This document shows positions 397-17,185 of a stretch of DNA of 32,000 nucleotides, one piece after another. The stretch spans positions 2,190,001 through 2,222,000 of the forward strand of contig NC_014833.1 in the NCBI RefSeq assembly GCF_000179635.2, given 5' to 3'. A program made the translations under genes and the position numbers. The DNA is from Ruminococcus albus 7 = DSM 20455 (GTDB lineage: Bacteria; Bacillota; Clostridia; Oscillospirales; Ruminococcaceae). The first letter of the stretch is position 1, and each line of letters begins with the position of its first letter. The notes under the pieces were generated by a model that saw only the letters and a list, made by a program, of their open reading frames with translations, was not told the origin of the DNA and did not search any database.

Positions 397-412
397 GAGA
401 GGAATGGAAAAA

Positions 413-766: not shown

Positions 767-781
767 GAAAGGAATGATAAT

Positions 782-1906
782 ATGAAATGGTCAATAAGAG
801 AACTTCTTAACCCGGTGGTCACCAGATCAATGCTTTACGGAAGTGATCCATTTGATACAGAATACGTTTTGAAAAGAGTAGACGAGATAGACGTCATGAG
901 CGGTAAGAAAATACAGGCTGTATGGCTTGGTGAATGGGGCAAGAAGATCGCTCATTACGCAGAACTTCGTGATCAGAACGAGGCTAAGGAAAACCGTATC
1001 TCTGCAAGAGCATACGCTAAAATGGTCGCTCAGTGCTGGTACGCTTGCTATATGGTTAATATTCAGGACTTGGAGCAGAAGGTCTCCATTTATAATAACC
1101 TGGCTGAAAGCTACAGAAAGTATACTGAACTATGCGATAACAAGATAGAGTACGTTGAGATAGATACAGCTTTCGGAAAGCTTCCTGCTTATATCCACTA
1201 TCCCGATGACGGCAGCAAGGAAAGCTATCCTATCGCTATAACCTACTCGGGCATCGGTAGCTGTAAAGAGGAACTTGATATGCTGGCAATGCCACTTAAT
1301 GAGCGTGGAGTTGCAGTTATAACCCCTGATATGCCCGGAACAGGCGGCGCTGTTATATGGAATAACGTGAAGTGCGGCGGTGACGAACTGGAAGCCGCTT
1401 TCGATGGTATTTACAAGTTCATTGACAGCCGCAGTGAACTGGACAGCACCCGTATAGCTAACTTTGGTCTGTGCATGGGCGGCGGTTATGCTATCAGAGC
1501 AACAGCAAAGAATCCTGCTGTTAAATGCTGCGTAGCACTTTTCCCGCTTATGATATGCTATTGCAAGCTTGATTCCGTACCGATATGGATGAAGAAGGGC
1601 AAGTGGACTTCCTACCAGACAAATGATGACTATATGGAAACGATGAATGTTCTCTCCGAGGGTACTCTCAGCTCCGATTTCTTCCTTGTTCACAGCGATT
1701 ACGATAACTGGATGACCCACGAGGCAAATGATATCCTCTACAGCAAGGCTACAGGTTACAAGGAGAGACTTGAAGTTACTGAAAGACCTGCCTATGTTTC
1801 CGAGGAAACTATCATGCACGCAATGCCGGTAGGTGAGCAGTTCCATTGGGTAAAGCATATAACTGCTGATTTCATTGCACAGAGACTTACAGGAGAAACC
1901 AAATGA
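782..1906 (+). CDS. alpha/beta-fold hydrolase, dienelactone hydrolase / FrsA-like, with a Cys nucleophile elbow
   Basis: 374-aa ORF with an N-terminal helical region followed by an alpha/beta core (PIAITYSGIGS...VAVITPDMPGTGG). The nucleophile elbow is G-L-C-M-G at 1466-1480, with the Cys231 codon at 1472-1474. The stop overlaps the next gene's start (ATGA at 1903-1906). Confidence 0.7.
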   Translation: MKWSIRELLNPVVTRSMLYGSDPFDTEYVLKRVDEIDVMSGKKIQAVWLGEWGKKIAHYAELRDQNEAKENRISARAYAKMVAQCWYACYMVNIQDLEQKVSIYNNLAESYRKYTELCDNKIEYVEIDTAFGKLPAYIHYPDDGSKESYPIAITYSGIGSCKEELDMLAMPLNERGVAVITPDMPGTGGAVIWNNVKCGGDELEAAFDGIYKFIDSRSELDSTRIANFGLCMGGGYAIRATAKNPAVKCCVALFPLMICYCKLDSVPIWMKKGKWTSYQTNDDYMETMNVLSEGTLSSDFFLVHSDYDNWMTHEANDILYSKATGYKERLEVTERPAYVSEETIMHAMPVGEQFHWVKHITADFIAQRLTGETK

Positions 1907-3462
1907 GCATGAATTTCTTTGATTATTACAGCAAATACGCTCAGGAGACACCTGACAAGATCCTTCTGAGAATAGATGAGAATACACTGACATACAGTCA
2001 GTTCATGGAGAAAACCGCCATATTCGGTTCTGCACTTAAAAAGTTGGGCATCGGTGTGAACGATAAGGTAGGTCTGGTAATGCCTAACAGCATTGAATGG
2101 TATATTGCTTTCTGGTCAGCTGTAAGAATAGGCGCTCAACCTGTTCCGATTGATCCTCAAAGCGGTTCGCTGGAACTTTCCAGACTTATCCCTGCAACTA
2201 CAGTCAAGATGCTTTTCGTCGCTGAAAAATACAGAACAAATCATATTATAAAAGCAGTGGAGCAGATCGTTCCCGGTGAATTCAAGCTTACAAAGGTCGT
2301 ATGCTTTGCGCCTGAAAGCGCAGTACCTGAGAACGAGTGTTACACAACTGCCGATAAATTTACTGCTGAATTAGGTGAGGCTGACTGCGAGATCTATCAG
2401 CCTGAGTATCTTCACACTATGTCACTCGCCTGCACTTCAGGCAGTACCGGCACACCAAAGATTCTGGCTATCCCAACAGGCGGATTTCTCTCCACACAGA
2501 AAGATATGGGCGATTATCTGGAATTCAAGTCCGACGATGTAATGATGCTGGGCATGACCCTCTATCACCAGGGCGGATTCGGAATGGGTCTGCAAATGGC
2601 ACTCAAGGGCGGATGCGTAATGTATCAGCCGCAGTTCAATCCCATTTCTTTCCTTGAAACTGTTCAGAAATACAAAGTAAATATAATTCAGCTCACCTCT
2701 ACACTTGCAAAGGTCCTGCTTTCAACTCCCGATTTTGATAAGTATGACCTTTCATCTGTTCGTATATGCTACTTTGCAGGAGAAGTTCTGCCCAAGGAGA
2801 TCGCTGATGCATTTGTTAAGAAACTGAATATCCGTGTTATAAATATAATCGGTTCGTCCGAGACCTGTACTATGGTAGTATGGGATTCTGCTAAGGACGG
2901 TGACACTGACCCCAGCGACTTCAAGAAGCTTTACTTCACTGATTATCGTGTTATTGATGCTGAAAAGAATGACGTTGCCGAGGGTGAAACAGGAGAGTTA
3001 TGTGTATACACAGACGGTGTAATCACGGAGTATTTTGGCAATCCAGAACTTTCTGCCGAAAAGATACTTACCGATGAGCAGGGCAGAAGATGGTTCTGTA
3101 CAGGCGATCTTGTAAATAAACTGCCCGGAGGTATAGTTCGTTTTGCGGGACGCAGCAAGCGTATTATCAAACGTGGCGGAAACCTTGTCCACGCAGAAGA
3201 AGTTGAAGCCTGCCTGCTCACTCATCCCAAAATTGCTGCCGCAGCTGTAACTGATGAGCCGCACCCGGTTATCGGTCAGCAAATAGTTGCCTACATTCAG
3301 CCAAAGGGCGATGAAAAGATAACAAGAGGCGAACTGGCACGCTATTTTGACGGAAAACTCTCTGCATACAAAGTACCCGACAAAGTAGTTCTCGTAGAGG
3401 AGATCCCAAAGGACATCGGTAAGATACAGTTTAAATATCTCAGAAAAAAGGAGTATAAATAA
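1903..3462 (+). CDS. AMP-dependent synthetase/ligase (ANL superfamily acyl/aryl adenylating enzyme)
   Basis: Core motifs are TSGSTGTPK (P-loop/A3), GSSET (A5), CTGDL (A7), GRSKRIIKRGG (A8) and PKDIGKIQ (A10 Lys). The 4-nt ATGA overlap with the upstream gene indicates translational coupling. Confidence 0.9.
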   Translation: MSMNFFDYYSKYAQETPDKILLRIDENTLTYSQFMEKTAIFGSALKKLGIGVNDKVGLVMPNSIEWYIAFWSAVRIGAQPVPIDPQSGSLELSRLIPATTVKMLFVAEKYRTNHIIKAVEQIVPGEFKLTKVVCFAPESAVPENECYTTADKFTAELGEADCEIYQPEYLHTMSLACTSGSTGTPKILAIPTGGFLSTQKDMGDYLEFKSDDVMMLGMTLYHQGGFGMGLQMALKGGCVMYQPQFNPISFLETVQKYKVNIIQLTSTLAKVLLSTPDFDKYDLSSVRICYFAGEVLPKEIADAFVKKLNIRVINIIGSSETCTMVVWDSAKDGDTDPSDFKKLYFTDYRVIDAEKNDVAEGETGELCVYTDGVITEYFGNPELSAEKILTDEQGRRWFCTGDLVNKLPGGIVRFAGRSKRIIKRGGNLVHAEEVEACLLTHPKIAAAAVTDEPHPVIGQQIVAYIQPKGDEKITRGELARYFDGKLSAYKVPDKVVLVEEIPKDIGKIQFKYLRKKEYK

Positions 3463-3464
3463 TT

Positions 3465-3716
3465 ATGAATAATCTCGATTGGAACGAATTCAGACAGGTA
3501 GTTTCTGACTATGTAGGTGTTGATGCTGATGAGATCACAAGGGATACTGATGTTTTTGATGACCTGTATCTTGATTCTCTCGGACTGTTCGGCCTTGGTT
3601 CACACATTACAGATACATACAAGCTGAATGTTGCGCTGTCATTGGTAGCATCTATCAGCAGAGTAGGGGAGTTCTTCGATCTTCTTAACGAAAAGGGTAC
3701 ACCGATAGAGGGATAA
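3465..3716 (+). CDS. acyl/peptidyl carrier protein (phosphopantetheine attachment site)
   Basis: 83 aa. The LYLDSLGLFGL motif has the DSL serine (Ser38, codon 3576-3578). The gene starts 2 nt after the ligase stop. Confidence 0.85.
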   Translation: MNNLDWNEFRQVVSDYVGVDADEITRDTDVFDDLYLDSLGLFGLGSHITDTYKLNVALSLVASISRVGEFFDLLNEKGTPIEG

Positions 3717-3717
3717 T

Positions 3718-4428
3718 ATGACACTTTTCTTTTTCCCACACGCAGGAGGTTCAGCAAAGAGTTACGCATCATTTAAACGCTTTCTCCCAAAAGATCTGAA
3801 CGTTGTCACAATGGAACTTTCAGGGCGTTTTACCCGTTCTGACAAACCACTGATGCACGATATCGAGTCGTGTATCAGTGAACTTTTTGACAGCAACGAA
3901 AAGCTTCCGGACTTTCTTAAGGATGGCGATTACGCAATATTTGGTCATAGCATGGGAACAATCCTTGCCTCCGAATTTGTAAAACAGATAAGGGAAAAGG
4001 GTCATCCTGCGCCGATACACATCTTTCTGTCAGGTAAAAACGCTCCTGATGAAAACCTTCATTGTTTCGATGATATCAACAAGGTCACCGATCAGGAGAT
4101 AATTGATTTTTTTAACAATAACAGTATGAATTCCTCTCCGGTGATCCCCGATGCGGAGCTTGTAGCACAGCTTAACCGTATCCTCTGTAATGATGTTAGA
4201 ATGGCTGAAAAGTACTGCACCACTCCGAATCAGGTGCAGTTTGGCTGTGATATCACGGCGATATACGGCACAGATGATACAATGCTAAAAAATGCTAACA
4301 TGAGCAGCTGGAAACGATATACCGATAAAAACTGTGAAGTAGTATCATTTAGCGGCGGACATTTCTACTATACTCAGCACAAGGAGGAAGTCTGCAAGCT
4401 TATCTGTAATAAACTTGGACTTAATTAG
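3718..4428 (+). CDS. type II (editing) thioesterase
   Basis: FFFPHAGGSAKSY N-terminal motif, GHSMGT nucleophile elbow and C-terminal GGHFY catalytic His motif, in 236 aa. This is the classic GrsT/TEII layout. The gene starts 1 nt after the carrier-protein stop. Confidence 0.9.
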   Translation: MTLFFFPHAGGSAKSYASFKRFLPKDLNVVTMELSGRFTRSDKPLMHDIESCISELFDSNEKLPDFLKDGDYAIFGHSMGTILASEFVKQIREKGHPAPIHIFLSGKNAPDENLHCFDDINKVTDQEIIDFFNNNSMNSSPVIPDAELVAQLNRILCNDVRMAEKYCTTPNQVQFGCDITAIYGTDDTMLKNANMSSWKRYTDKNCEVVSFSGGHFYYTQHKEEVCKLICNKLGLN

Positions 4429-4645: not shown

Positions 4646-5556
4646 TTATATTGGCTTCCATTTTATAAGTTTTTTCTCTGCTATATCCAGCACAACATTC
4701 AATATGGTTATCACAGTTCCTACAACGAATATTCCTGCAAGTACTCTGGCATAATCGGCATAGTCTGAATATTTTTTTATGAAAAATCCAAGTCCGCTTG
4801 TTGCACCGATCATCTCTGCCATTATTAGGATCATAAATATGGTGGAGATCTGTATTTTAAGATTACCGACAATTGATGGGATACTGTAAGGCAGTATCAC
4901 CTTAAAAAGCATTGTTGGTGTACTTACATTCATTGCCTTGGCAGAATCTATCAGTCTTCCGTTTATGCTGCCGACCCTGTTTATCATTCCAAGGAATATC
5001 GGCCAGAACATACCTATGCCTATTACAGCTATCGATGCAGATGTAAATGTGGGCATCAGCGCGATGAGATATGGGGTATATACCATGGGCGGTATAGGGC
5101 TGAGTACTTTAGCAATTGGTGTAAAATCATTATTGAGCCGTTTTACCCATCCCACTATCATGCCCAGTATATTTCCCGATATGAGTGCTATTGAAAATCC
5201 TGTCACCAGTATCATCAGAGAATGACCTATGCCCTCTGCTATAAATTCGCTGTCCTTCAGGAACACCTCGAATACATTCTCCATTGGTGGATTAAGTACA
5301 GGATTGCCCTTGCCAAGTATACGGAAAGTTATATCCCATATAAGAAAAAGACAGTATGGTAGAACCAGATAAGTCCCATGATAGCAACATAGACGGTGTT
5401 TTTCGGTGCGCTGACCTTTCCTTTTATAAACGAAAGTGTTATCACTGTTCCGGCAAAAAGTGTAACAACAGCTATGTTCAGTATTATTTTGCCGACAGAG
5501 TAAGTTTTCTCACTATCGCGTGATTCCAATGTATTTATTGTTCGTGTATCTGTCAT
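4646..5556 (-). pseudogene. ABC transporter permease (NitT/TauT / SsuC-type), split by a 1-nt frameshift
   Basis: Two ORFs cover it: 5556->5329 (75 aa, two TM helices) and 5284->4646 (212 aa, BPD-type permease core). The 75-aa ORF start overlaps the ATPase stop (ATGA at 5553-5556), which is typical operon coupling. The downstream frame stays open upstream of its ATG and reads LIWDITFRILGKGNPVLNPPMENVF. Adding one base to the A5 run at 5345-5349 fuses both parts into one 303-aa protein. Confidence 0.75.
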
Positions 5557-6332
5557 GCAGTTCTCACCTTCACTTCTGTAAACAGGTCGAGCAGCTCATG
5601 GCGAAGCTGATCGTATCTGTTTAGTCGAATCAGTTCCTCTCTTGGGGTATTTGCGGGAAGACCTACATTTACTTCTGTCCTTATCTTATGGGGCTCCATG
5701 AAATATACCTTGTCAGCCAGGACCAGTGCTTCGTCGATATCATGGGTAATGAATACCACTGTCTTTTTCTCCCCGCGTTTTTTGCAAAGCTCAATGCTGA
5801 GTTCCTGTAATTCTATACGCTTCTGTGGGTCGATAGCTCCGAATGGTTCGTCCATGAGAAGTATGTCCGTATCCATCGCAAAAGCTCTTGCCAGAGCCAC
5901 ACGCTGCTGCATTCCGCCCGAAAGCTCGTGTGGATATTTATTAGCACTGTCAGCAAGTCCGACCAATTCAAGATACTCCTCTGCTCTCTTTGCTATCTCT
6001 TTTCTGTTTTTTAGTATACCGGCTTCTTTGATTCCGAACATGATATTCTTTTTTGCAGTAAGCCACGGGAAAAGTGAATAGTGCTGAAATACCATACCTC
6101 TGTTTACATCGGGACCTGTAACAGGCTTGTCGTTTATCAGTATCTCACCTTTTGTTGGGAACTGAAGACCTAACAGCAAAGATACAAGCGTGCTTTTTCC
6201 GCAGCCCGAAGGACCGATAAGGCAAGCGAACTCCCCCTCTTCTACCTTAAAATTCAGACCATCAAGGATATTTACTGCTTTGTTATCAGTTTCATAGCTG
6301 AATGAAACATTACGAAATTCTATTTTACTCAT
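5553..6332 (-). CDS. ABC transporter ATP-binding protein (NitT/TauT family, SsuB/TauB-like)
   Basis: Walker A GPSGCGKST, ABC signature LSGGMQQR, Walker B ILLMDEPF and an H-loop ITHD. The 259-aa size is typical of this family. Confidence 0.9.
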   Translation of the reverse strand: MSKIEFRNVSFSYETDNKAVNILDGLNFKVEEGEFACLIGPSGCGKSTLVSLLLGLQFPTKGEILINDKPVTGPDVNRGMVFQHYSLFPWLTAKKNIMFGIKEAGILKNRKEIAKRAEEYLELVGLADSANKYPHELSGGMQQRVALARAFAMDTDILLMDEPFGAIDPQKRIELQELSIELCKKRGEKKTVVFITHDIDEALVLADKVYFMEPHKIRTEVNVGLPANTPREELIRLNRYDQLRHELLDLFTEVKVRTA

Positions 6333-6363
6333 TATCGGTTCCTCCTTAAAATAATATCATCTT

Positions 6364-7446
6364 TTATACATCGTATTTGTCCGAGAACTCTTTAAGAGCA
6401 ATATAATCGGGATCATCAGGATATTCTTTAAGTATCTGATCAAGCGCTTCGCGGAAGATCTCTGTATTGACATTTCCGCTTATGTCAGCGTCCTTGATTA
6501 TTCCCTCGCCTATTAGATATGCTGCATAATCAACTACTCTGTTCCTTGCAGGATCTGGGTTATAGCGCGAAGCATAATCACCGTAAAGCGCTTCTGTAAC
6601 ATACTCCTCTGTCTGACCCGTTTGTCTGACCATAATATCTATGGCATTGTCATGATCGTTGAGTATCAGTTTGTATGCTCTTATCAAACCTCTCTGATAA
6701 GCTACAAGTTCATCATGTTTTTCTTGGACTACCTTTGAAGTAGTAGTCTGACGGCAGCATGGATAGCACGGATCTATATCACCTACCTTTATTCCCAGAT
6801 CAAGTCCGAAATTTTTTGCAGTCTGTACTCCGTCGGCGGTGATATATCCAACATCGACCTGCCCCTTTGATACCGCCTGAACAATGGAAGTATCATCATT
6901 GAGGTAATCTATCTCGATATCCTGTTCAGGAACTATGCCGATCTCACGCAGCTTTGCACGTATGATGTTATCGCCCGTGTAGCTTCTGGCTGATGCCCAT
7001 TTCTTTCCAGCCCAGCCGGATAATTCAGCAAACTGTTCAGTGTTTTCAGGCTTTGTGATGATAGCACCTCCCTCCTGTGCCGATCCGCCGAAGAATATAA
7101 GATCCTGTCCCTCAGCCATGAATTGTAACTGTAATGTGATACCTACGGGAACTACATCGACTTTGCCTGTTGAAAGCGCTGTTAAACTGTCAGCTGTGGA
7201 GAGAAGAACATCGGAGTTTACCGTCACGCCTTCCTCTTCAAAATATCCCTGATCGTAGGCAACCGTAGTCAGCGCGGACTTTATAGATGAAGGGAACCAC
7301 GCGACTTCAAGTGTACCGACATTCGCTTTGTTTACTCCGCTTCCCGATGTTTTTTTATGCGATGAACTTCCGCAGGCTGTCAGGGTGCTGACAAGAAGTG
7401 AAGTTGCGATCAATACTTCAATAGCTTTCCTTACTCTTTTCTTCAT
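6364..7446 (-). CDS. ABC transporter substrate-binding lipoprotein (NMT1/THI5 - SsuA/TauA-like)
   Basis: Signal peptide with lipobox LTAC (MKKRVRKAIEVLIATSLLVSTLTAC-GSS). I prefer the start at ATG 7446 because a GAGGAAG RBS lies 7 nt upstream. The longer ORF to 7497 adds a non-signal-like extension. Confidence 0.8.
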   Translation of the reverse strand: MKKRVRKAIEVLIATSLLVSTLTACGSSSHKKTSGSGVNKANVGTLEVAWFPSSIKSALTTVAYDQGYFEEEGVTVNSDVLLSTADSLTALSTGKVDVVPVGITLQLQFMAEGQDLIFFGGSAQEGGAIITKPENTEQFAELSGWAGKKWASARSYTGDNIIRAKLREIGIVPEQDIEIDYLNDDTSIVQAVSKGQVDVGYITADGVQTAKNFGLDLGIKVGDIDPCYPCCRQTTTSKVVQEKHDELVAYQRGLIRAYKLILNDHDNAIDIMVRQTGQTEEYVTEALYGDYASRYNPDPARNRVVDYAAYLIGEGIIKDADISGNVNTEIFREALDQILKEYPDDPDYIALKEFSDKYDV

Positions 7447-7503
7447 AAATATCTTCCTCGTATAATAAAAGTAGTAGTTTTTAGAGTTCCTCTCCAAGAA
7501 CTA

Positions 7504-7512
7504 TGGTATAAT
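7504..7512 (+). promoter_or_regulatory. extended -10 promoter element TGGTATAAT
   Basis: Exact TGnTATAAT at 7504-7512 on the + strand, pointing into the IS110 leader and transposase. No good -35 is present. Confidence 0.35.
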
Positions 7513-7699
7513 ATTGTTTAGATGCTGTGGATTGGTTTGATCTTCCTACCGTATGACGGTTTACGAAAGGCTCCGACCGCAGTCTCTATGCAATTTGTTG
7601 ATCAGTTAGATACCGCCCGACGGTTTATTTAGAACGAGGTTACATTAGCGTAGAGTCTCTGTGGATCTAAACAGCATCAATAATTTTGGAGGTATCATT
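7513..7699 (+). ncRNA. candidate IS110 bridge (guide) RNA in the left non-coding end
   Basis: Elements of the IS110 subgroup are known to encode a structured bridge RNA upstream of the recombinase. Here an extended -10 box precedes a ~190-nt non-coding leader. The leader has a long-range complementary pair GATGCTGT (7521-7528) / ACAGCATC (7671-7678). It also has direct repeats CTGTGGAT (7525-7532, 7659-7666) and GACGGTTTA (7555-7563, 7619-7627). I did no structure or homology computation. Confidence 0.3.
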
Positions 7700-8875
7700 A
7701 TGATCGTTGTTGGTATTGATGTGGCAAAGGACAAGCATGACTGCTTTATTGTTGATTCTGAAGGTACAGTACTCTTTGATGTGTTCACTATCCCAAACAC
7801 TCTTGACGGCTTTAATATCCTGCTTGATAACATCAAGTCCGTTACCGAAAATTTTGACATAATAAAAGTAGGACTCGAGGCTACGGGACATTACAGCTAC
7901 AATCTGTTGGGATTTCTGTTGAACAACGGCCTGCCAACCTACGTTCTGAACCCTTTGCACACTAATCTTTACCGAAAAAGCCTTACACTTCGTAAAACGA
8001 AGACAGACAAGGCAGATGCGCGCGTGATTGCTTCTATGCTAATGTCTTGCGTAGACCTAAAGCCCTACACAAATACATTATATCAGAGCGAAGAGCTAAA
8101 GTCAATGACCAGATACAGATTTGACAAGGTTTCCGAGCGTGCAAAGCTCAAGACCTCCGTATCAAGGCTTGTGACTATTCTCTTTCCCGAACTTGAAGCG
8201 CTCGTGCCTTCGCTGCACATGAAGTCTGTCTATACTCTTTTGAGCGAGTTTCCTTCAGCGCAGCATATCGCAAATGCTCACCTTACAAGGCTTGCCAATC
8301 TGCTTTCAGAGACTTCCAAAGGTCACTACGGCAAGGACAAAGCTATTCAGATCAGAGGTGCCGCAAGACGCTCTGTCGGCTCTGTAATGCCTGCAAAGTC
8401 GCTGGAACTCAGGCACACCATAAAGCTCATTGCTGACCTGACCGAGCAGATAGATGAGATAGAAACCGAGATAAAGAAGCTGGTCGATGCAACCGACACT
8501 ACACTTCTGACCGTTCCCGGTCTCAGCTATTCAACTGTCGCTATGATCCTCGCAGAGGTCGGTGACTTTTCAAACTTCGCAACACCCGACAAAGTACTTG
8601 CATTTGCGGGAATGTCGCCCTCTACATACCAATCGGGACAGCTGACGAATTGTTATGCCAAGATGGAAAAGCGCGGCTCAAAGTATCTTCGCTATGCTCT
8701 CTACAACGCTGCCAAATTCGTCTGCACCTGGGACAAGACATTCAAAGATTATCTCGCCAAGAAGCGAGCCGAGGGCAAGCATTACAATGTTGCATTATCT
8801 CACGCTGTCAAGAAACTCGTCAGACTCATTTTTGCTCTTGAAAAGTCTCATTCGCCATATCAGCCTGTTGTTTGA
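7700..8875 (+). CDS. IS110-family transposase/recombinase (DEDD_Tnp_IS110 + Transposase_20 domains)
   Basis: N-terminus MIVVGIDVAKDKHD and GLEATGHY (RuvC-like DEDD fold). The C-terminal motif is VPGLSYSTVAMILAEVGDFSNFATPDKVLAFAGMSPSTYQSGQ. A GGAGG RBS lies 7 nt before ATG 7700, so the longer ORF from 7661 is unlikely. Confidence 0.9.
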   Translation: MIVVGIDVAKDKHDCFIVDSEGTVLFDVFTIPNTLDGFNILLDNIKSVTENFDIIKVGLEATGHYSYNLLGFLLNNGLPTYVLNPLHTNLYRKSLTLRKTKTDKADARVIASMLMSCVDLKPYTNTLYQSEELKSMTRYRFDKVSERAKLKTSVSRLVTILFPELEALVPSLHMKSVYTLLSEFPSAQHIANAHLTRLANLLSETSKGHYGKDKAIQIRGAARRSVGSVMPAKSLELRHTIKLIADLTEQIDEIETEIKKLVDATDTTLLTVPGLSYSTVAMILAEVGDFSNFATPDKVLAFAGMSPSTYQSGQLTNCYAKMEKRGSKYLRYALYNAAKFVCTWDKTFKDYLAKKRAEGKHYNVALSHAVKKLVRLIFALEKSHSPYQPVV

Positions 8876-8934
8876 AATTTTTGTTAATCTTCATTTTTAG
8901 GGGTTGACTTTTGATAGTTAGTCTTTCGCATATA

Positions 8935-10488
8935 TCAGATAGTGGGCTTATCCGTTTCGGGCAGACCGGTTATATAATGGTATGGGCTCTTGCCATACCA
9001 CTGTTCCTGATACGGAAGTTTGGTATGTGCTGAAATATTCCGCGCATAGGCTGTGTTTTTCAGAGTTCTCTCTATCCTCTTTGCAAGGGAGTATGCTCCC
9101 GTAAAACCGAAATATGTAAATCTCTGTGCAAACAATGTGAGCGAAGGTACGCCTGCCTTTACAAGCCATACACCTACTGAGGGGTGAGATATGGCAATAT
9201 CCGGTTTAAGCTTGTATACCATGTTAACTAGCTCGTTTGCCTGAGTTGAAACAGCATTCTGAACATCACCTATCTTTTCCTGGACCTCGCTGAACAGCTG
9301 ATCTCCGAATTCATCATAGTTGAAGTTTCTGAAACCCACAACTTTAAGTCCTATCTCATCTGCCAGAAGTCCCGTTGCACCAATACGTAGAAAACCGCCG
9401 CTTATCAGAACGCTCTTTCCCTCTACATTTTTTCTTATTGGTACCAGCGCCTTTTTCAGCTTTTCAGTTTCCTTTTTCAGCAGAAAATCTGCTTCTTTTT
9501 CAAGGCCGAAAAATTCAGCTATGGCTTTTATGAACTTTACTGTCTGATCTGTACCTATAGGGATTGTGGGGAGTATATATGGTATACCGAATTCCCTTTT
9601 CAGATACTCAAGGAAATATACATCATGTACATGACAAAAGCTTACATTCAGTGCAGTCTCGGTAATAAACCTCCAGTCATCGGGCTCTTTGTATTCAACG
9701 AATATATTGACATTGATCCCCAAAGCATTCAAAAGTCTCTTGATCTCCTTTTCATCTCCGGGACCAATGGACCATGCGTTATACAGGGTCACAGTGCGGC
9801 TCTTTTTGTATTCGTAGCGCTGCTTTTTGATCTCGTAGTCGGGATCGCTCTTGTCAAATGGGGTATAGTCGATATATTTTTTAGGCTCAAAGCCAAACCT
9901 GTGCATTATGCCGTGGTACACAACATCATACGCCGAAGAAAATACCTTCGCACCGAAACCGGGACAATGGAGCGGTACAACTGTTGCTGTTACCTGCTCC
10001 TGAGCATGGTTAACAACGCTTTCTATATCATCTCCGATAACTCCGGGGGCGCAGGTATTGCAGACAAATATAGCTGTGGGACGGAAGCGTCTGTCGGCTT
10101 CGATAATGGTATCGTAAAGCTTTTCATTTCCGCCGCTGATAACGTCAGTCTCTGTCAGATTTGTACTCAGCCATCTTACACCTTCCATCTTCACTCCGCG
10201 TGCAGCACCGTACTGCTTTATGCTGAAATCAATACCATGGGACTGTGAACCGCAGCCAACAGGACCATGCATTATTACGACGGAATCCTTTGTCGAGAAT
10301 GAAATCAGTGTCGAAACACCCATCTGGCAGAACATAGCCTGCGTAAAGCTGCGGTCGCATCTACCAAGACATCCTGCGCATGAACCGCTCCTGAGATCAC
10401 TTGTACATCCGCCGAAAGCATAGGCTGTGGCTCTCTGCCTTTCTCTGGGATTTGGTACCTGCACATCAAAATTTACATCGAATTTCAT
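8935..10488 (-). CDS. nitrogenase component-1 family (Oxidored_nitro) protein, alpha-type (NifD/NifE-like)
   Basis: HGPVGCG (10252-10269), STNLTETDVISGGNEKL, CNTCAPGVIGDDIE, LHCPGFG and FCHVHDVYFLEYLKREFGIPY align by eye with NifD segments HGPVGC, CPVGLIGDDI, RCEGFRG and [21 protein letters not shown]. A GGAGG RBS lies 9 nt upstream, and the gene starts 6 nt after the preceding gene's stop. Confidence 0.8.
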   Translation of the reverse strand: MKFDVNFDVQVPNPRERQRATAYAFGGCTSDLRSGSCAGCLGRCDRSFTQAMFCQMGVSTLISFSTKDSVVIMHGPVGCGSQSHGIDFSIKQYGAARGVKMEGVRWLSTNLTETDVISGGNEKLYDTIIEADRRFRPTAIFVCNTCAPGVIGDDIESVVNHAQEQVTATVVPLHCPGFGAKVFSSAYDVVYHGIMHRFGFEPKKYIDYTPFDKSDPDYEIKKQRYEYKKSRTVTLYNAWSIGPGDEKEIKRLLNALGINVNIFVEYKEPDDWRFITETALNVSFCHVHDVYFLEYLKREFGIPYILPTIPIGTDQTVKFIKAIAEFFGLEKEADFLLKKETEKLKKALVPIRKNVEGKSVLISGGFLRIGATGLLADEIGLKVVGFRNFNYDEFGDQLFSEVQEKIGDVQNAVSTQANELVNMVYKLKPDIAISHPSVGVWLVKAGVPSLTLFAQRFTYFGFTGAYSLAKRIERTLKNTAYARNISAHTKLPYQEQWYGKSPYHYITGLPETDKPTI

Positions 10489-10494
10489 ATATCT

Positions 10495-11829
10495 TTACCT
10501 CCCCGATACCTGTGCTGTTATCAGATCTTCCAGCAGTGCAAGTCCGCCGTTGAAGCCTGCGTATGTTTTATTGAGTATGATACGGCTCATTGCAGGAAAG
10601 CTTATATTCAGGAAATTTCCGTTCAGTACCTGTGAAAGCTTTCTGTCGATGGAACTGCCAAGAACGAATGCAGGCTCAAGTTTTTCATAATAGGTATCCG
10701 ACAAAAACTGAGGGTCATTCTGTGTGATGTACTGCTGTATCTTTGAGGTATCCGTTTCAAATACAAGCTTCGGACGATATTCAAAAGGCAGTTCTTCAAA
10801 ATGTTGGCGAATGATCTCCTTATTTTTCTCCCTAAGCTCATCGGTTATAAATACATACTCGGGAAGCCAGCCTATCTCGTTATCAAGATATTGTGCATAA
10901 GAGAGTGCCTGTGTCGCATTGTTGACTACCACTGCATAGTTCTGGAAATCCGTATCTGCAATAACGTCGGTTGCTCTGTCAACATAGCTGTAATAACGCT
11001 CAACTTCTTTTTCAAGAGCTTTTTCAGCAAATTCCCTGTCAATGCCAAGCTTTTCTGCTATTTCAATTGCAAACTTAACTGAAGCATTGCTGCCGATAGG
11101 AAGATCGGTAACTATATAATCTATACCGTGCTTTTCCTTAGCCGCCTTTGCAGCTCTTATTCCGTTTACAGGTGAAAGAACGATATTCAAAGCTGCTTTA
11201 CCGGCATTTCTGATATCCTCGATTGTCTGGTCGAGTGTTACAAAGGTAGTTGCTTTAACACCGATAAGTGAGAGTATTCTCCTTATCTCTTCAAGGTCGC
11301 CCCTGAAAAACGGATCGTATGCAGGTACAAGTCCAAGCAGATTAACAAGCTTTTCATCTTTTTCTTTTGTTACGGGTATGTACTGTTCAAAAAAGCTCTT
11401 TATCACGATATCATAACCATAGTAAGAATTGCCCTTGAATCCGCCTGTATCAACGAATATCAGAGGATACTCGGGTCTTTCTACCTCGCTGATGACCGCT
11501 TCAACATCATCACCGATAAGATCGGTCATACAGCTTGTAACTACTACAAAAAGATCGCCGTCCATTACATCGTAGGCCGCAAGTATCTCTTTTCTGAGCT
11601 TCTCAGCACCACCAAAGATGATCTCCTTTTCACTTACATTTGAACTGGGAAGTGAAGCACCGCCGCAATAACCAACTCCCAGATATCCGCCGTAAGCAAA
11701 TGAATTTGTCAGCTGACCGCCGCAGCCCTGTGCTCCGTGTATTATAGGTATTACTCTCGGAAGAGAGGTGAGAGTTGCTAGTGCGCCTCCCAGCATACAT
11801 GAAAACCTTGGTCTTTCAATAAATGACAT
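10495..11829 (-). CDS. nitrogenase component-1 family (Oxidored_nitro) protein, beta-type (NifK/NifN-like)
   Basis: FSCMLGGALA, HGAQGCGG and VVVTSCMTDLIGDDVEAV match the three NifK/NifN cluster-Cys motifs (aCqPlGA, HGSQGC, TTCmxExIGDD). I prefer the start at ATG 11829 (MSFIERPRF) because a GGAGGG RBS lies 5 nt upstream. The GTG at 11847 would overlap the cysK stop. Confidence 0.8.
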   Translation of the reverse strand: MSFIERPRFSCMLGGALATLTSLPRVIPIIHGAQGCGGQLTNSFAYGGYLGVGYCGGASLPSSNVSEKEIIFGGAEKLRKEILAAYDVMDGDLFVVVTSCMTDLIGDDVEAVISEVERPEYPLIFVDTGGFKGNSYYGYDIVIKSFFEQYIPVTKEKDEKLVNLLGLVPAYDPFFRGDLEEIRRILSLIGVKATTFVTLDQTIEDIRNAGKAALNIVLSPVNGIRAAKAAKEKHGIDYIVTDLPIGSNASVKFAIEIAEKLGIDREFAEKALEKEVERYYSYVDRATDVIADTDFQNYAVVVNNATQALSYAQYLDNEIGWLPEYVFITDELREKNKEIIRQHFEELPFEYRPKLVFETDTSKIQQYITQNDPQFLSDTYYEKLEPAFVLGSSIDRKLSQVLNGNFLNISFPAMSRIILNKTYAGFNGGLALLEDLITAQVSGR

Positions 11830-11843
11830 GATATCCCTCCTTA

Positions 11844-12791
11844 TCACGCAAGTTCCGCAGGCTGATCGAAAAGTGCGGTACTAAGGTAACGTTCTCCCGT
11901 ATCAGGCAGAAGCACAACTATGCGCTTGCCTTTATTCTCTTTGCGTTTAGCAAGTTCGATAGCGGCAAACAATGCTGCACCCGATGAGATACCCACCAGC
12001 AGTCCCTCAAGTCTTGCCGCTGTTCGTGCAGTTTCCAGAGCTTCCTTGTTCTTCACCCTGAATATCTCATCAATTACTTCTCTGTCAAAGATATGCGGAA
12101 CAAATCCGGCACCTATACCCTGTATCGCATGAGGTCCGGGAGCTTCACCCGAAAGAACAGAGGAATCATAGGGTTCAACTGCTATAACTTTTGTATCGGG
12201 ATCATTCTGTTTAAGAGCTCTGCCTGTACCTGTTACAGTTCCGCCGGTACCCACTCCTGCAACGAAGTAATCCACCTTACCATCGGTATCTCTTATGATC
12301 TCCTGTGCAGTAGTTTTTGTATGTATTTCCGGATTTACAGGGTTATCGAACTGCTGTGGGATAAATGAATCCTCTATCACCGCATTGAGTTCTTCCGCCT
12401 TGCGGATAGCACCCTTCATACCCTCTGCCGCAGGAGTAAGAATAACCTTTGCCCCAAGCTGAGTTACCAGCCTGCGTCTTTCTACCGACATACTCTCGGG
12501 CATTGTAAGTATAACTTTATATCCCTTGACTGCCCCGACAAATGCAAGCCCGATGCCTGTATTTCCGCTTGTGGGTTCAATTATGGTATAACCTTCTTTT
12601 AAAAGTCCTTTTTCCTCTGCATCTTCTATCATCGCCAGAGCTATCCTGTCCTTTACGCTTCCCAGAGGATTGAAGTATTCAAGCTTTGCATACACCTCTG
12701 CATATAGTTCGTCATCTCCTGCCAGCCTGCTTATTTTCAAAAGCGGCGTATTGCCTATAAGCTCTGTCAGATTTTCTGCTGTCTTTGACAT
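11844..12791 (-). CDS. cysK: cysteine synthase A (O-acetylserine sulfhydrylase, PLP-dependent)
   Basis: [11 protein letters not shown] (PLP lysine), [12 protein letters not shown] and [11 protein letters not shown] motifs in ~315 aa. The start is ATG 12791, or GTG 12797 two codons upstream. Confidence 0.9.
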
Positions 12792-12808
12792 GATCACATC
12801 ACCTTTCC

Positions 12809-13150
12809 TTACTTGCTGCGTTTTCTGTACTCTACGATCTTTTCGATCACATAATCAGTATCAGAACCGGGCATTTCAAAATATTTCTTTCTTTGGGTCT
12901 CAAAATATCTCTGTATCCTGCTCCCGATGCGTGCGGCGATAACATACTGGCAGTTTTCCACAAGTTCAAGTCTTGCTTCTGCACCTCTGTGATCTCCGCT
13001 GCATCCTTCCTGATTTCCAAAGGATATTGTTTTTTCCTTGGCGGAAACATCATCTTCGATACGATAGATATCAAAACGTGAAGCAGAACCGAAGTGCTGG
13101 TCTACTTTATGTCCGTCCGCCGTAGCAACTGCTATTCGATATTGGCTCAT
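12809..13150 (-). CDS. NifX/NifB-C-terminal-like dinitrogenase FeMo-cofactor-binding family protein (Nitro_FeMo-Co)
   Basis: [31 protein letters not shown] is the signature N-terminus of this small-protein family, and [14 protein letters not shown] fits the family's C-terminal half. An AAGGAGAG RBS lies 8 nt before ATG 13150. The annotated longer ORF start at 13177 lacks an RBS. Confidence 0.8.
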
Positions 13151-13196
13151 AAAATTTACTCTCCTTATCAAATTCATTTATAGTTATTGTTAAAAT

Positions 13197-13233
13197 TCAT
13201 ATCTTATAGATTTGATTAATATATCATATCTTA
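13197..13233 (-). promoter_or_regulatory. 10-bp direct repeat in the operon leader (candidate operator)
   Basis: TCATATCTTA occurs at 13197-13206 and 13224-13233 (minus-strand TAAGATATGA), 27 bp apart. Both copies sit between the predicted -10 and the RBS. Confidence 0.3.
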
Positions 13234-13247
13234 CTTTATTGATTTTA

Positions 13248-13275
13248 ATTATATCATAAAAATTCCTTCCGTCAA
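13248..13275 (-). promoter_or_regulatory. sigma-A type promoter for the nifX-like/cysK/nitrogenase-like operon
   Basis: On the minus strand: TTGACG (13275-13270), a 16-nt spacer, then extended -10 TGATATAAT (13256-13248). It lies about 100 nt upstream of ATG 13150. Confidence 0.55.
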
Positions 13276-13846
13276 CTAAAATATAGAGCAACGTTATTAT
13301 AACATTTGACTTTCAATAACTAATATGCCTAAATTTGTTAATAAGGTATGAGTAAAATATCTCTTTGTAGTAAAATTCCTTGGATTTACAGGTTTTGCTG
13401 TAAAAGGAAATGCGTTAAATACTAAATACGTGATAACGTTACATCTCTTGAAACAGAGCTTTTCTAGTCATTAAGCTGATCAACACTTTTTGGATCATTC
13501 CATTTAACTACTGATCTGTGATAATTGATATCACCAAGCCTAAAAAACACAACATAATACGGCTTTGTTCGCAGTCCGAAATGCACCAATAAAAACGTAA
13601 AATGACAACAAAGACTCCTTATGATCTATTTCTTTTTGAATTTACATGGTACTTCCCTTCTATATTTTAGTTTTACTCATGAAACTAAAATAGTACTGCT
13701 ACAGAGTGTGAGATTTGAAGATGATTGTGCAGGATATGTAATAAAAAAAGCAGGATAATCTATTGTTAAAATTATTAAATTGAAGTACAATTATAATCGC
13801 AGCGGAAGGATTCTGCATTAACTATCCATAATAAGGAGGAATATCC

Positions 13847-16174
13847 ATGAAATTCAAACATATCATCGCTTCTGTAATTGCATCAGTAATGGTAAGCACG
13901 ACAGCGCTTTCCATTACAACAAGTGCAGGAAATTACACCAGGGTATCTGTTCATGATCCATCGATCGTCAAACTGAAAGACGGAAGTTATTTCATTATCG
14001 GTTCACACCTCGGGGCTGCGCGCTCATCTGATCTTATGAACTGGACATCGGCAGCAAATTCATATCTTGGTTCTACGAGGACTACTTTTTTTAATAATAT
14101 ATATACTGATCTTGCCATTCCTGAAAAATGGTCGAACACCAGCGCGAACTATGATCTTTCGGGAAATTTGTGGGCACCTGATATAATCTATAATCCATTG
14201 ATGAAGAAATATTGTATGTACCTTTCAGTAAACGGGGTAGACTGGCATTCATCTATTGTGCTGTGTACATCAGACAATATTGAAGGTCCATATTCATACA
14301 GTGGAACTATCGTATATTCCGGTTTTGAAACAAAACCTGCTAATTCTGCCAACAACTACAAAAATACAGATGTTCAAAAAGTTCTTGGAAGCAACCCCGA
14401 TCTCAGCCGTTACCTGAACAGCAGCGGAAGATGGAATGCCGAATACGGCACAAATGCAATCGACCCATGCACCTTTTATGACGAAGACGGTAAACTGTGG
14501 ATGGTATACGGCTCGTGGTTCGGTGGTATATATATGCTGGAACTGGATGAAAAAACAGGTCTGCGAGATTATAACGTAAAATATAAAACGACGTCAAGTG
14601 GAGGAGCCGTACAGTCTGATGCCTATATGGGTATCCACGTAGCAGGAGGTCACTGGGTATCAGGTGAGGGTCCTTACATTGAATATATGAAAGATCCCGC
14701 AACCAATAAGGGATATTACTATCTTTTCTTATCCTACGGCTATTTCAACAACAAGGGCGGATACAACATGCGTATCTTCCGCAGTGATAAACCACAGGGT
14801 CCATACATTGACCAGAATGGTAATTCTGCTATATTTGCACAAGGCGGAGACAATATAGCGGGCAATGTCGGTGAGCGTTTGATGAGTAACTACCAGTGGA
14901 GCTGCAATTCAAAACCAAATACAGCTCAGGGACACAACTCCGTCCTCATGGATGATGACGGTAAGCTATTTTGTATCTATCACAACAAATTTGATGATAA
15001 CTATGGCGGACACGAAGTACGTGTTCATCAAATGATTATGAACGAAGATGGCTGGCCGACAGCTACATCGTATGAATACTCAGGCGAAACATTGTCTGCC
15101 AACGGTCATACAATGGAAGCTATAGTTGGTGATTATGAGCTTATCTGGCATAATCCGAACCAGAAATTTGTTAATGAGAAATCAGCTGATGTAGAAAAGC
15201 CTATCAATATCACATTAAAAGCAGACGGTACTGTCACGGGTGATATCAGCGCAACATGGAAAATAACGAAGAACGGTACACCTTACATGAGTTTTACATG
15301 GGGAGGAGTGACCTACAAAGGCGCATTTATCGTACAGAATGATGAATCGGCTCAGGAAGTCAAGAAAATGACATTTACTGCCACAGGCATAAACATCTGC
15401 ATTTGGGGTAGTAAGAAAACTGCTTATGTTCCTTCGGAAGATATAGTTAATAAAACACCGATAAGTAACGGTTCGTATACCATAAAGAATTTGAACAGTG
15501 GTCTATACCTTAATGCTGATACTTCTAAAAACAGTGGCAGTGCTGAACAGAATACTGGTGAACAGGTTTGGAAAGTTATCGCGGACAGCGAGGGTTGGTA
15601 CACTCTTAGAACTTCTGACGGCAAGGCACTGACTGTTGCAAACAGCAGTACTGAAAACGGCGCTGATATACTTATTGCTGATTATAACGGCAGCAATTCT
15701 CAGAAATTCCGTATACTCGATGACGGAAACGGAAATATGGCTGTGCTATCAGCTGTGTCTGGCTGCAAGGCAGGACTTGACGTATACAATATAAGCAAGG
15801 ACGCAGGTGCGAATATCTGCCAGTGGGAATACTGGGGCGGTGACGGTCAGAAGTTTATATTCAAAGCTGCAGAGAATACAATTTCAAAGCCTGTTTATCC
15901 TTATGTATATCTTGTAGAGTACAACGAAAAATATCACCAGATAAGGTTTAACTGGCAACCTGTAGCCGGTGCACAAAATTACGGTATCGCAGTATATATT
16001 GCCGGTAAGTGGAGGATACAGACCCAGAGTATCGCGGGTTCAGCAACAAGCTATATCACTCCAAAGAATCTCACAGCCGGTAAAACCTATAAGGTTGCGG
16101 TGGCTGCGAAAGTAAACGGTGTATGGGGCGTTGCGGAAGCTATCAAGCACGCAGTTACAGTGACTGTAAGATAA
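13847..16174 (+). CDS. secreted GH43 glycoside hydrolase (arabinanase/xylosidase-type) with CBM13 ricin-type lectin domain and C-terminal FN3-like module
   Basis: Signal peptide MKFKHIIASVIASVMVSTTALS. GH43 catalytic motifs are VHDPSIV, NAIDPCTFYDEDGKLWMVYGSW and SGEGPYIEY. A beta-trefoil region has QxW-like repeats (EQVWKV, SQKFRI, CQWEYWGGDGQKFIF). The conserved terminal module spans 15890-16171. An AAGGAGGA RBS lies upstream. Confidence 0.85.
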   Translation: MKFKHIIASVIASVMVSTTALSITTSAGNYTRVSVHDPSIVKLKDGSYFIIGSHLGAARSSDLMNWTSAANSYLGSTRTTFFNNIYTDLAIPEKWSNTSANYDLSGNLWAPDIIYNPLMKKYCMYLSVNGVDWHSSIVLCTSDNIEGPYSYSGTIVYSGFETKPANSANNYKNTDVQKVLGSNPDLSRYLNSSGRWNAEYGTNAIDPCTFYDEDGKLWMVYGSWFGGIYMLELDEKTGLRDYNVKYKTTSSGGAVQSDAYMGIHVAGGHWVSGEGPYIEYMKDPATNKGYYYLFLSYGYFNNKGGYNMRIFRSDKPQGPYIDQNGNSAIFAQGGDNIAGNVGERLMSNYQWSCNSKPNTAQGHNSVLMDDDGKLFCIYHNKFDDNYGGHEVRVHQMIMNEDGWPTATSYEYSGETLSANGHTMEAIVGDYELIWHNPNQKFVNEKSADVEKPINITLKADGTVTGDISATWKITKNGTPYMSFTWGGVTYKGAFIVQNDESAQEVKKMTFTATGINICIWGSKKTAYVPSEDIVNKTPISNGSYTIKNLNSGLYLNADTSKNSGSAEQNTGEQVWKVIADSEGWYTLRTSDGKALTVANSSTENGADILIADYNGSNSQKFRILDDGNGNMAVLSAVSGCKAGLDVYNISKDAGANICQWEYWGGDGQKFIFKAAENTISKPVYPYVYLVEYNEKYHQIRFNWQPVAGAQNYGIAVYIAGKWRIQTQSIAGSATSYITPKNLTAGKTYKVAVAAKVNGVWGVAEAIKHAVTVTVR

Positions 16175-16309: not shown

Positions 16310-17185
16310 TTACTGCACCAAAGCAGCCAAAAGCCTTAAATACGCACTGTTTCCCAGCTTACGACGGTTGAATTTGTAGCAGTATTCGGCAGCATATAAC
16401 GCTGTGTGGATCTTTTCGTTTCCGTGGTAAGTTCCCATGATCATTGCTTTGAAGTTTGATATAACTTTATGCATCCAGTTCAGCTGACCGCTTGTCGGAT
16501 CATATGTTTCAAAAACATGGAAGTATTTCTGTGCCAACGGTTTCTTGTAACTTCGAGCATTATCACTCTCGATCTTCGAGCCTGCGCGGATATTATCCCT
16601 GGCAAATCTACCAACAGTTATACCCTTTAAATTCGGCACATCGCTCATTTTAACGTACTCGGGATTTCCTGCTGAGTTCTTTGATAAAGCTACGATCATT
16701 TTGACTTTTTCAGTACCTCTACCACGCTTTTTACCGTGAGTCGGAGCACCGAGATACGTGTCATCAAGTTCAACGATCCCGTCAAGCAAATAGCGTTCTT
16801 CACGGCATTTCATAGCTTTTCTGATGCGATGAAGGATGTACCATGCAGTCTTGTAGGTCACCCCCAAAGACCTCATCAGCGTAACAGCAGAAACACTGCA
16901 TTTGTTGCTCATAATGAGGAATGCGGTGACTATCCACAGTCTGAGCGGAATATGTGTTCTGTGCATAAAAGTTCCGTTTGTGGCGGATATATCTGCTTTA
17001 CAGAACTTGCAGCGCAGCTGATGGCGTGACCTTATCCTGCGGTACTCAGAGCCACCGCAAAACGGACAGGCAAAGCCCTTTTCAAAGCGGATATCAAGCA
17101 GAAAATCCTTGCAAAAGCTTTCATCTGCGAACTTTGAGTATATCCCATCAAGTGTGATCTCAGGTTTCGGAAATCTTTTTGACAT
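16310..17185 (-). CDS. IS1595-family transposase (Zn-ribbon + DDE domain)
   Basis: N-terminal zinc ribbon CPFCGG...CKFCK, an HTH-like segment SVSAVTLMRSLGVTYKTAWYILHRIR, and a DDE core beginning VELDDTYLG. The 291-aa length fits ISXO2-like transposases. Confidence 0.85.
   Translation of the reverse strand: MSKRFPKPEITLDGIYSKFADESFCKDFLLDIRFEKGFACPFCGGSEYRRIRSRHQLRCKFCKADISATNGTFMHRTHIPLRLWIVTAFLIMSNKCSVSAVTLMRSLGVTYKTAWYILHRIRKAMKCREERYLLDGIVELDDTYLGAPTHGKKRGRGTEKVKMIVALSKNSAGNPEYVKMSDVPNLKGITVGRFARDNIRAGSKIESDNARSYKKPLAQKYFHVFETYDPTSGQLNWMHKVISNFKAMIMGTYHGNEKIHTALYAAEYCYKFNRRKLGNSAYLRLLAALVQ

Follow-up and report, generated by a model that had tools for sequence, protein, structure and literature searches.

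A nitrogenase-like operon of Ruminococcus albus 7 (DSM 20455), in which the genes for a K-like and a D-like subunit lie beside genes for a cysteine synthase and for an ATP-binding cassette (ABC) importer, was analysed within a window of 32,000 nucleotides (nt) of contig NC_014833.1 (positions 2,190,001 to 2,222,000 of the forward strand); all coordinates given below count from the first nucleotide of this window. Gene calls combined a listing of open reading frames (ORFs) with Pfam and NCBIfam profile scans and an Rfam scan over the window. An earlier note on this DNA had described a minus-strand array of genes for a NifX-like protein, CysK, a K-like and a D-like subunit behind a strong promoter, continued after an IS110 insertion sequence by genes for a binding lipoprotein, an ATPase and a permease. 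The gene order and coordinates of that description were all reproduced by the ORF and profile scans, including the gaps of 14 nt between the CysK and K-like genes and of 6 nt between the K-like and D-like genes, and they define one minus-strand operon behind a conserved promoter. The lipoprotein and ATPase genes beyond the IS110 element were likewise recovered, but the permease gene, whose damage the note had not recognised, is frameshifted. The expected Pfam families were found as well, PF00148 in both subunits (234 bits for the K-like and 236 bits for the D-like protein) and PF02579 in the NifX-like protein. The gene order in the window is the one tabulated for Rumal_1936-1950 with the RNA-seq data of Greening et al. 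(2019, PMC6776011), and an identical D-like protein is present in GCA_000621285.1 and in several sequencing-run assemblies.

The features of the operon, from upstream to downstream, are as follows.

About 13428-13445, minus strand: GTAACGTTATC palindrome, a conserved block in the Ruminococcus leader alignment
13290-13297, minus strand: ATAACGTT, just upstream of the -35 hexamer, a conserved block in the same alignment
13248-13275, minus strand: operon promoter, TTGACG, 16-nt spacer, TG-extended TATAAT
12809-13150, minus strand: NifX-like small protein, 113 aa (PF02579, 57 bits)
11844-12791, minus strand: CysK paralog, predicted cysteine synthase A, 315 aa (TIGR01139, 444.6 bits)
10495-11829, minus strand: K-like subunit, 444 aa (PF00148)
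8935-10488, minus strand: D-like subunit, 517 aa (PF00148)
7459-8922, plus strand, antisense to the operon: IS110-family element with transposase at 7661-8875 (NF033542, 214 bits)
6364-7446, minus strand: NitT/TauT-family substrate-binding lipoprotein, 360 aa (NMT1 and NMT1_2 domains)
5553-6332, minus strand: ABC transporter ATPase, 259 aa (PF00005, 120 bits)
4646-5556, minus strand: ABC permease pseudogene in two ORF pieces, 5329-5556 and 4646-5284

The K/D pair, its clade and the linked cysteine synthase

Both sequence and structure comparisons placed the K/D pair nearest to MarDK of the Rhodospirillum rubrum methylthio-alkane reductase. In HMMER searches the D-like protein scored 191 bits against MarD versus about 90 bits against NifD, and the K-like protein 258 bits against MarK (9d9u_C) versus about 67 bits against NifK, with identities to MarD and MarK of 27% and 34%, respectively. 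The PF00148 nitrogenase component 1 fold is present in both subunits. The AlphaFold model of the D-like protein (predicted local distance difference test score, pLDDT, of 90.9) had MarD as its best Foldseek match, with template modelling (TM) scores of 0.82/0.90 and a root mean square deviation of 2.8 Å, and NifD came next; the query-normalised TM scores to bona fide nitrogenase alpha subunits were 0.61-0.70.

The cluster ligands of MarDK, of which 9FMG and 9D9U are structures (PMC12552129, PMC13474568), are C66, C91, C158, C270 and H429 of MarD and C32, C56 and C121 of MarK (PMC12552129). All eight, that is six P-cluster cysteines and a Cys/His pair, are present in the window proteins. C54, C79 and C146 of the D-like protein align with MarD C66, C91 and C158; C11, C36 and C100 of the K-like protein align with MarK C32, C56 and C121; and the cofactor ligands C285 and H435 of the D-like protein correspond to MarD C270 and H429. 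The five D-subunit ligands are invariant in 110 out of 110 full-length D homologs, and among 14 K homologs each of the K ligands is found in 12-14, the gaps being due to two truncated gene calls.

The best scores of the pair against NCBIfam nitrogenase equivalog models were 174 bits (cutoff 486) and 159 bits (cutoff 505), and the positions of the nitrogenase catalytic residues Gln191 and His195 are occupied by Phe and Tyr in the D-like protein, in which the His ligand lies in a MarD-type loop. Because no equivalog cutoff was reached and the catalytic Gln and His are replaced, the pair was rejected as a bona fide NifDK or NifEN. MarDK proper (Group IV-C) was rejected as well, on the low identities, the separate clade and the differing active-site residues. 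In a neighbour-joining tree computed with numpy (200 bootstrap replicates), the Mar clade was recovered in 200 replicates and the CysK-linked proteins formed a clade of their own in 191. As judged from these comparisons, the K/D pair is an uncharacterised sister lineage of MarDK within Group IV.

In order to follow the gene context, species-representative genomes were scanned with the D-like protein, which gave seven close Ruminococcus loci (86-99% identity), and the wider distribution was drawn from eleven look-ups of contigs with D-like homologs. The contexts outside Ruminococcus are listed below by contig, with identity to the window D-like protein (X, NifX; H, NifH; B, NifB core).

L008, 69%: X, H, CysK, K, D, ABC
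L020 (Treponema), 66%: CysK, K, D only
L024, 65%: DUF2292, B, X, H, CysK, K, D, ABC
L010, 61%: DUF2292, B, H, CysK, K, D
L021, 60%: ABC, CysK, K, D, H, X-B fusion
L025, 60%: DUF2292, H, B, ABC, CysK, K, D, X
L012, L022 and L023, 42-53%: LysR, K, D, with or without ABC; without CysK

The five Ruminococcus loci that reach upstream carry X, CysK, K, D, the binding protein, (ATPase) and the permease; the ATPase was not detected in two loci (L018 and L019), and a short contig (L017) holds K, D and the binding protein only. The CysK-K-D triad is kept in all seven sampled independent contexts of the clade (the Ruminococcus loci and L008, L010, L020, L021, L024 and L025) and across the seven Ruminococcus species-level genomes. 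Since every sampled context of the clade holds the triad, the CysK linkage is not accidental, and the possibility raised by the earlier note that it is a juxtaposition unique to this strain is refuted. Members of the clade are found in R. albus 8 and AR67, which are cultivable rumen bacteria, and in Treponema, Spirochaetaceae and Clostridia from guts and metagenomes.

The operon CysK exceeds the TIGR01139 equivalog cutoff (444.6 versus 350.95 bits) and scores 386 bits against solved CysK structures. Strain 7 has two other cysK genes, Rumal_0078 and Rumal_1884, and the operon gene is predicted to encode a dedicated cysteine synthase A paralog. The NifX-like protein, a weak match to the NifX structure 9ian_E, is probably a carrier of the iron-sulfur-carbide cluster made by NifB.

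Further genes were observed in the relatives. A DUF2292 gene of 60 aa precedes the NifB/NifH genes in three contigs (L010, 5597-5776; L024, 5213-5395; L025, 1874-2056), and its product looks like a conserved accessory protein. Small ORFs follow the D gene in L020 and L024 and are not homologous to each other. L010 (14795-21533) and L024 (15033-21536) also contain a second nitrogenase-like locus, with genes for MetY, a binding protein, a permease, an ATPase, D and K; its D-K pair, with 43% identity to MarD, falls in the true Mar clade, and the locus lies a few kb from CysK-K-D. True Mar-clade proteins found beside the relatives are 43-57% identical to MarD.

Promoter, selection and the import half in strain 7

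The strong promoter reported in the earlier note, at 13275-13248, proved to be the best sigma-70 match in the region (11/12 plus TG), and of the seven Ruminococcus operon leaders aligned, five keep both of its hexamers; overall, the region holds about as many promoter-like sites as expected by chance. Two of the three copies of the ATAACGTT 8-mer in the window fall within 13290-13445. The GTAACGTTATC palindrome lies about 150-170 nt upstream of the -35 hexamer and about 190 nt upstream of the -10 hexamer, and the AGATATGA direct repeat in the 5' leader of the operon is conserved across the Ruminococcus leaders (leader region 13178-13560). The ATAACGTT, GTAACGTTATC and AGATATGA blocks may be operator sites for a regulator. 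Riboswitch or T-box control was dropped, as no Rfam family was found at the gathering threshold in the window or at E ≤ 1 in 7300-13900.

The import half was compared with the uninterrupted operon of AR67 (L007/L013), which has 87-88% nucleotide identity to the window. The IS110 element (1,464 bp; entered as Rumal_1942 for strain 7) interrupts a 22-nt spacer that separates the stop codon of the D-like gene from the start codon of the binding-protein gene. In the permease gene a 58-bp deletion near 5352-5357 causes a frameshift and leaves two ORF pieces; the gene, Rumal_1939, carries the product "none" in the strain 7 table. An intact permease of 322 aa is encoded in AR67, strain 8, a metagenome-assembled genome (L015) and L016, and L018 and L019 match it over 315-322 aa. 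Both lesions are absent from AR67, strain 8, L015 and L016, the Ruminococcus genomes with the complete operon region. Because of the insertion and the frameshift, the import half of strain 7 is damaged and is predicted to be disabled or uncoupled, with the enzyme half intact. Within the IS110 element a strong promoter-like site on the minus strand (8105-8077, 11/12 plus TG) faces the binding-protein gene and could independently drive the transporter genes; the 200-nt non-coding left end of the element, the site of IS110 bridge RNAs, gave no Rfam match and a fold z-score of -0.75.

The binding protein has an LTAC lipobox, and no informative solved relative was found that would hint at its ligand. 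It scored 66 bits against the SsuA family (cutoff 164), and the permease 76 bits against TauC (cutoff 342) and 60 bits against SsuC (cutoff 347). The importer, which had been described as sulfonate/taurine-type, therefore belongs to the wider NitT/TauT family and does not reach the cutoffs of these more specific models. A link to the Sao selenoprotein/organometallic transporter was rejected; the matches to the NCBIfam SaoA, SaoP and SaoX models fell well short of the cutoffs, and the Sao system is unrelated.

In Ruminococcus, strong purifying selection acts on all genes of the operon. The ratio of nonsynonymous to synonymous substitution rates (dN/dS) against AR67 was 0.009-0.08 over the operon genes (D-like 0.009, ATPase 0.011, CysK 0.034, NifX-like 0.08) and stayed under 0.17 in comparisons with three further lineages, where dS reached saturation (>1). 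The NifX, CysK, K and D genes compared with strain 8 gave 0.02-0.16 and no excess of amino-acid changes. Low dN/dS at high dS indicates that the operon is not decaying in Ruminococcus. In the RNA-seq data of Greening et al. (2019, PMC6776011), in which each fold difference compares one sample with one, the two pure-culture replicates shift in the same direction for Rumal_1943-1946 (4-5 fold), Rumal_0520-0523 (about 33 fold) and the main cysK, Rumal_0078 (2.3 fold), a weak hint of co-regulation.

Iron protein supply and the proposed sulfur route

The window contains no NifH, NifB or other nif gene by Pfam scans or by tblastn at E ≤ 0.01, as the earlier note had stated. NifH and NifB are also absent from the fetched flanks of all seven Ruminococcus loci, and NifH also from those of the Treponema contig L020 (flanks of about 1.4-10 kb upstream of the D-like gene and 1.2-10 kb downstream). 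Since neither gene flanks any Ruminococcus locus, their loss from the operon is a trait of the genus. Five of the six sampled relatives outside Ruminococcus (L008, L010, L021, L024 and L025) encode in the operon an iron protein that scores 483 bits against MarH versus 278 against NifH, and four of these five (all except L008) also have a NifB-type gene, whose radical S-adenosylmethionine product resembles MarB in being a NifB core that lacks a NifX domain. These genes suggest that the ancestral system has all Mar-type accessory parts.

The part of Table S2 of Greening et al. (2019, PMC6776011) drawn on here lists exactly one NifH homolog each in R. albus 7, 8, SY3, AD2013, AR67 and KH2T6, that of strain 7 being Rumal_2437, and lists none for R. 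flavefaciens 007c. R. albus 7 has a second nitrogenase-like locus, Rumal_0520-0523, likewise without an adjacent NifH gene. Split loci are known from other bacteria: in Rhodopseudomonas palustris marKD2 is 4.5 kb from marHB2 and NflDK3 is an orphan (bioRxiv 10.64898/2026.08.20.746119), and in R. rubrum nflDK is separated from the genes for H and B. With a single NifH homolog per R. albus genome and such split loci known, supply in trans is the simplest reading, and the iron protein for the Ruminococcus K/D pair is probably encoded elsewhere in the genome, with Rumal_2437 as the candidate. The lack of a cognate iron protein, which had been proposed as a trait of the system, thus does not hold for the clade. 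In L010 and L024 the CysK-K-D operon's own NifH gene is the only one within the 10 kb of downstream sequence available, which makes it plausible that one iron protein is shared with the MetY-linked Mar enzyme.

The Mar-like homology, the ligands and the linkage to CysK and an importer support the proposal, already made in the earlier note, of reductive sulfur acquisition on a nitrogenase-like enzyme, and the operon probably encodes such a system as a variant of the known Group IV systems. In the favoured account, which we regard as fairly likely, it encodes a Group IV reductase of K-then-D gene order, sister to MarDK, that would feed sulfur to its own CysK. An organosulfur compound would be taken up by the NitT/TauT-family ABC importer, and the K/D enzyme would reductively cleave a carbon-sulfur bond with electrons supplied, at the cost of ATP hydrolysis, by a MarH-like iron protein; in Ruminococcus the latter would be provided in trans, possibly by Rumal_2437, the single NifH homolog. 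A NifB-type enzyme would synthesise the cofactor, and the NifX-like protein would deliver it. The sulfur product would be combined with O-acetylserine to give cysteine by the operon CysK, in parallel with the conversion of Mar-derived methanethiol into methionine by MetY. Sulfide is the most likely product, because CysK takes sulfide whereas the Mar systems pair with MetY for methanethiol.

A more specific proposal is possible and is put forward tentatively: the CysK-linked K/D clade would carry out a C-S or S-O reduction that is new for nitrogenase-like enzymes, releasing sulfide from an imported thiol, sulfide or sulfonate, with the Ruminococcus iron protein either unlinked and shared or dispensed with. 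Coenzyme M and sulfoquinovose-derived sulfonates, which are plentiful in rumen and termite guts, may be examples of such substrates.

Several points weigh against the sulfur-acquisition account. The substrate, the product and the dependence on an iron protein are all predictions from sequence, and the family of the binding protein also includes carriers of sulfur-free compounds. The residues C73, Q74, W195 and F199 that line the MarD active site are L61, I62, F183 and Y187 in the D-like protein, the Tyr (Y187) being invariant across the D-like family; given this different lining, the substrate is probably other than those of Mar, which yields methanethiol from dimethyl sulfide, ethyl methyl sulfide or methylthioethanol. 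In rich medium, strain 7 expressed the operon at a very low level (2-19 counts; PMC6776011). The R. albus NifH homolog is a candidate partner of the K/D enzyme on the evidence of the published table, and no R. albus entry appears among the best 120 NifH and the best 120 NifB homologs listed; these are saturated by closer sequences (at least 82% and at least 64% identity, respectively) and name no Ruminococcus, so that this is not evidence of absence.

Four other explanations were considered. It is unlikely that the enzyme acts on sulfonates in the manner of isethionate reductase and releases sulfite from taurine, isethionate or plant-derived sulfonates. Isethionate reductase itself belongs to Group IV, tauABC, cysE and cysK are part of its regulon, and the importer of the NitT/TauT family with its weak SsuA and TauC matches would suit such a role; however, isethionate reductase is without two P-cluster cysteines and the Cys270/His429 pair, all of which the window enzyme has, and this full ligand set speaks against an enzyme of that type. 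Moreover, the substrate of CysK is sulfide and not sulfite, and no DsrA or AsrA sulfite reductase, the two types considered here, was recorded in R. albus by the screen of Greening et al. (2019).

That the locus of strain 7 is a decaying remnant without present function is quite unlikely. The IS110 insertion, the frameshifted permease and the very low transcript counts would be expected of a remnant, yet the damage is limited to the import half, neither lesion is carried by AR67, strain 8, L015 or L016, and the NifX, CysK, K and D genes are intact, with dN/dS of 0.02-0.16 against strain 8.

The Ruminococcus K/D enzyme might instead work without a NifH-type protein, reduced by ferredoxin, flavodoxin or a Flavin_Reduct protein, in which case it would be the first ATP-independent nitrogenase-like reductase. 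The fetched flanks of the seven Ruminococcus loci and of the Treponema contig are without a NifH gene, the Ruminococcus operon is nevertheless under strong purifying selection, and a 185-aa Flavin_Reduct gene follows the permease gene in AR67, strain 8 and L015. That gene is, however, missing from strain 7, L016, L018 and L019; in every R. albus genome screened there is one NifH homolog at another place; the clade within which the Ruminococcus proteins fall has in-operon MarH-like genes; D/K and H loci are split in R. palustris as well as R. rubrum; and all known systems of this type, including those known only from genomes, are two-component systems according to a 2026 review. This explanation is very improbable.

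Finally, hardly any weight can be given to the pair being a NifEN-like scaffold that builds or stores a metal cluster for another enzyme, a possibility that was raised for nitrogenase-like pairs by Dos Santos et al. and that would fit the NifX-like carrier gene in the operon and the partial matches to NifE models, since the Cys/His ligands are placed as in MarD, which holds a buried catalytic cofactor, the MarDK scores are far above the NifEN scores, the R. rubrum Mar cofactor is assembled without NifEN, and the conserved CysK and importer linkage points to a metabolic pathway.

Genomic surroundings and comparison with known systems

The operon of strain 7 lies between a GH43 arabinanase gene and a small polyketide/nonribosomal peptide synthetase-like gene set. 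In AR67 (L007, 359-6858 and 14488-18341) its neighbours are other sulfur genes, encoding a rhodanese-TusA-DsrE fusion, ThiF-like enzymes, a cysteine desulfurase and a MetNIQ-type transporter, and the operon ends with a Flavin_Reduct gene. These differing neighbourhoods suggest that the operon moved as a unit. The biosynthetic set of strain 7 (4-4428; Rumal_1935-1938) comprises the C-terminal part of a ketosynthase, a MIF-like tautomerase, a hydrolase, an AMP-dependent ligase, a carrier protein and a thioesterase, and it is well expressed in the published RNA-seq data (PMC6776011). The arabinanase gene (13847-16174), which encodes ricin-type lectin domains, adjoins two divergent genes for large regulators (17216-19621, minus strand, and 19821-22016, plus strand) with periplasmic-binding-protein and AraC DNA-binding domains, one of them with a weak GGDEF match. 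An IS1595-family transposase gene is located at 16310-17185, and together with the IS110 element it explains the breaks that draft assemblies of the strain show on either side of the enzyme genes (L001). Two further ORFs encode a 499-aa protein with no Pfam match (22066-23565, minus strand) and an 865-aa protein with a weak fibronectin type III match alone (23910-26507, plus strand).

The earlier note had considered the locus not to be a characterised system. The subfamily is indeed uncharacterised, and nothing was found in the literature for the Rumal locus tags or for descriptions of Group IV-D/E; the association of nitrogenase-like genes with cysteine synthase or O-acetylhomoserine sulfhydrylase and with ABC transporters was, however, noted in 2012 (PMC3464626), and the link of Group IV genes to cysteine synthase and transporters is still called a "tantalising" association in a 2026 review. 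The locus is thus not a new kind of system; it is an uncharacterised member of the known Group IV sulfur-acquisition systems. Sulfur functions have been assigned in Group IV to Mar (IV-C) and Isr (IV-F) only, and the same review sees the main challenge of the field in learning what the remaining clades do. Two sulfur activities are known for nitrogenase-like enzymes, cleavage of methylthio-alkanes and of isethionate, and the present clade, with its clean genomic signature of CysK-K-D and a dedicated importer, offers a testable route to a third anaerobic organosulfur-scavenging reaction. The presence of a Mar neighbour in L010 and L024, both metagenome contigs, suggests that the two systems divide the work, with sulfide going to cysteine and methanethiol to methionine, and a CysK-K-D system may explain the sulfur supply of fibre-degrading anaerobes.

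NifDK and NifEN share with the window pair the PF00148 fold, the P-cluster cysteines and a cofactor cysteine equivalent to alpha-Cys275; the window pair differs from them in its scores below the equivalog cutoffs, its MarD-type His loop, its Phe and Tyr in place of Gln191 and His195, and the lack of a nif regulon in the window. IsrBHDK of Rhodobacter capsulatus (Group IV-F) is likewise nitrogenase-like and serves anaerobic sulfur assimilation, and it is co-regulated with a TauABC-type importer and cysteine synthesis genes; unlike the window enzyme, IsrDK keeps four of six P-cluster cysteines and is without the Cys/His cofactor ligands, and the proposed product is sulfite.

Closer in arrangement are MarKD2/marHB2 and NflDK3 of R. 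palustris, in which D/K are likewise apart from H/B, a NifX homolog is nearby and all cluster ligands are kept. Their genes are induced by sulfur limitation, and MarKD2 is needed for growth on ethanedithiol (bioRxiv 10.64898/2026.08.20.746119). Unlike the window pair, the R. palustris proteins are 52-65% identical to one another, and their MarDK1 is nearest to R. rubrum MarDK, which places them in the Mar clade; these systems are alphaproteobacterial, with MetY and MetC as neighbours and no CysK.

In conclusion, the system most like that of the window is MarBHDK of R. rubrum (Group IV-C; 9FMG, 9D9U), which has the same fold, the six P-cluster cysteines and the Cys/His pair for [Fe8S9C]. The relatives of the window enzyme resemble Mar also in their MarH-like iron protein and in their NifB core, which lacks a NifX domain, and a sulfhydrylase and ABC importers are encoded alongside in both cases, suggesting a shared logic of sulfur scavenging. 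The differences are that the window pair is only 27% and 34% identical to MarDK, belongs to a separate clade and has another active-site lining; that its genes run K then D; that the Ruminococcus operon contains no H or B gene; and that its partner is CysK, for sulfide and cysteine, whereas the partner of Mar is MetY, which converts methanethiol into methionine.

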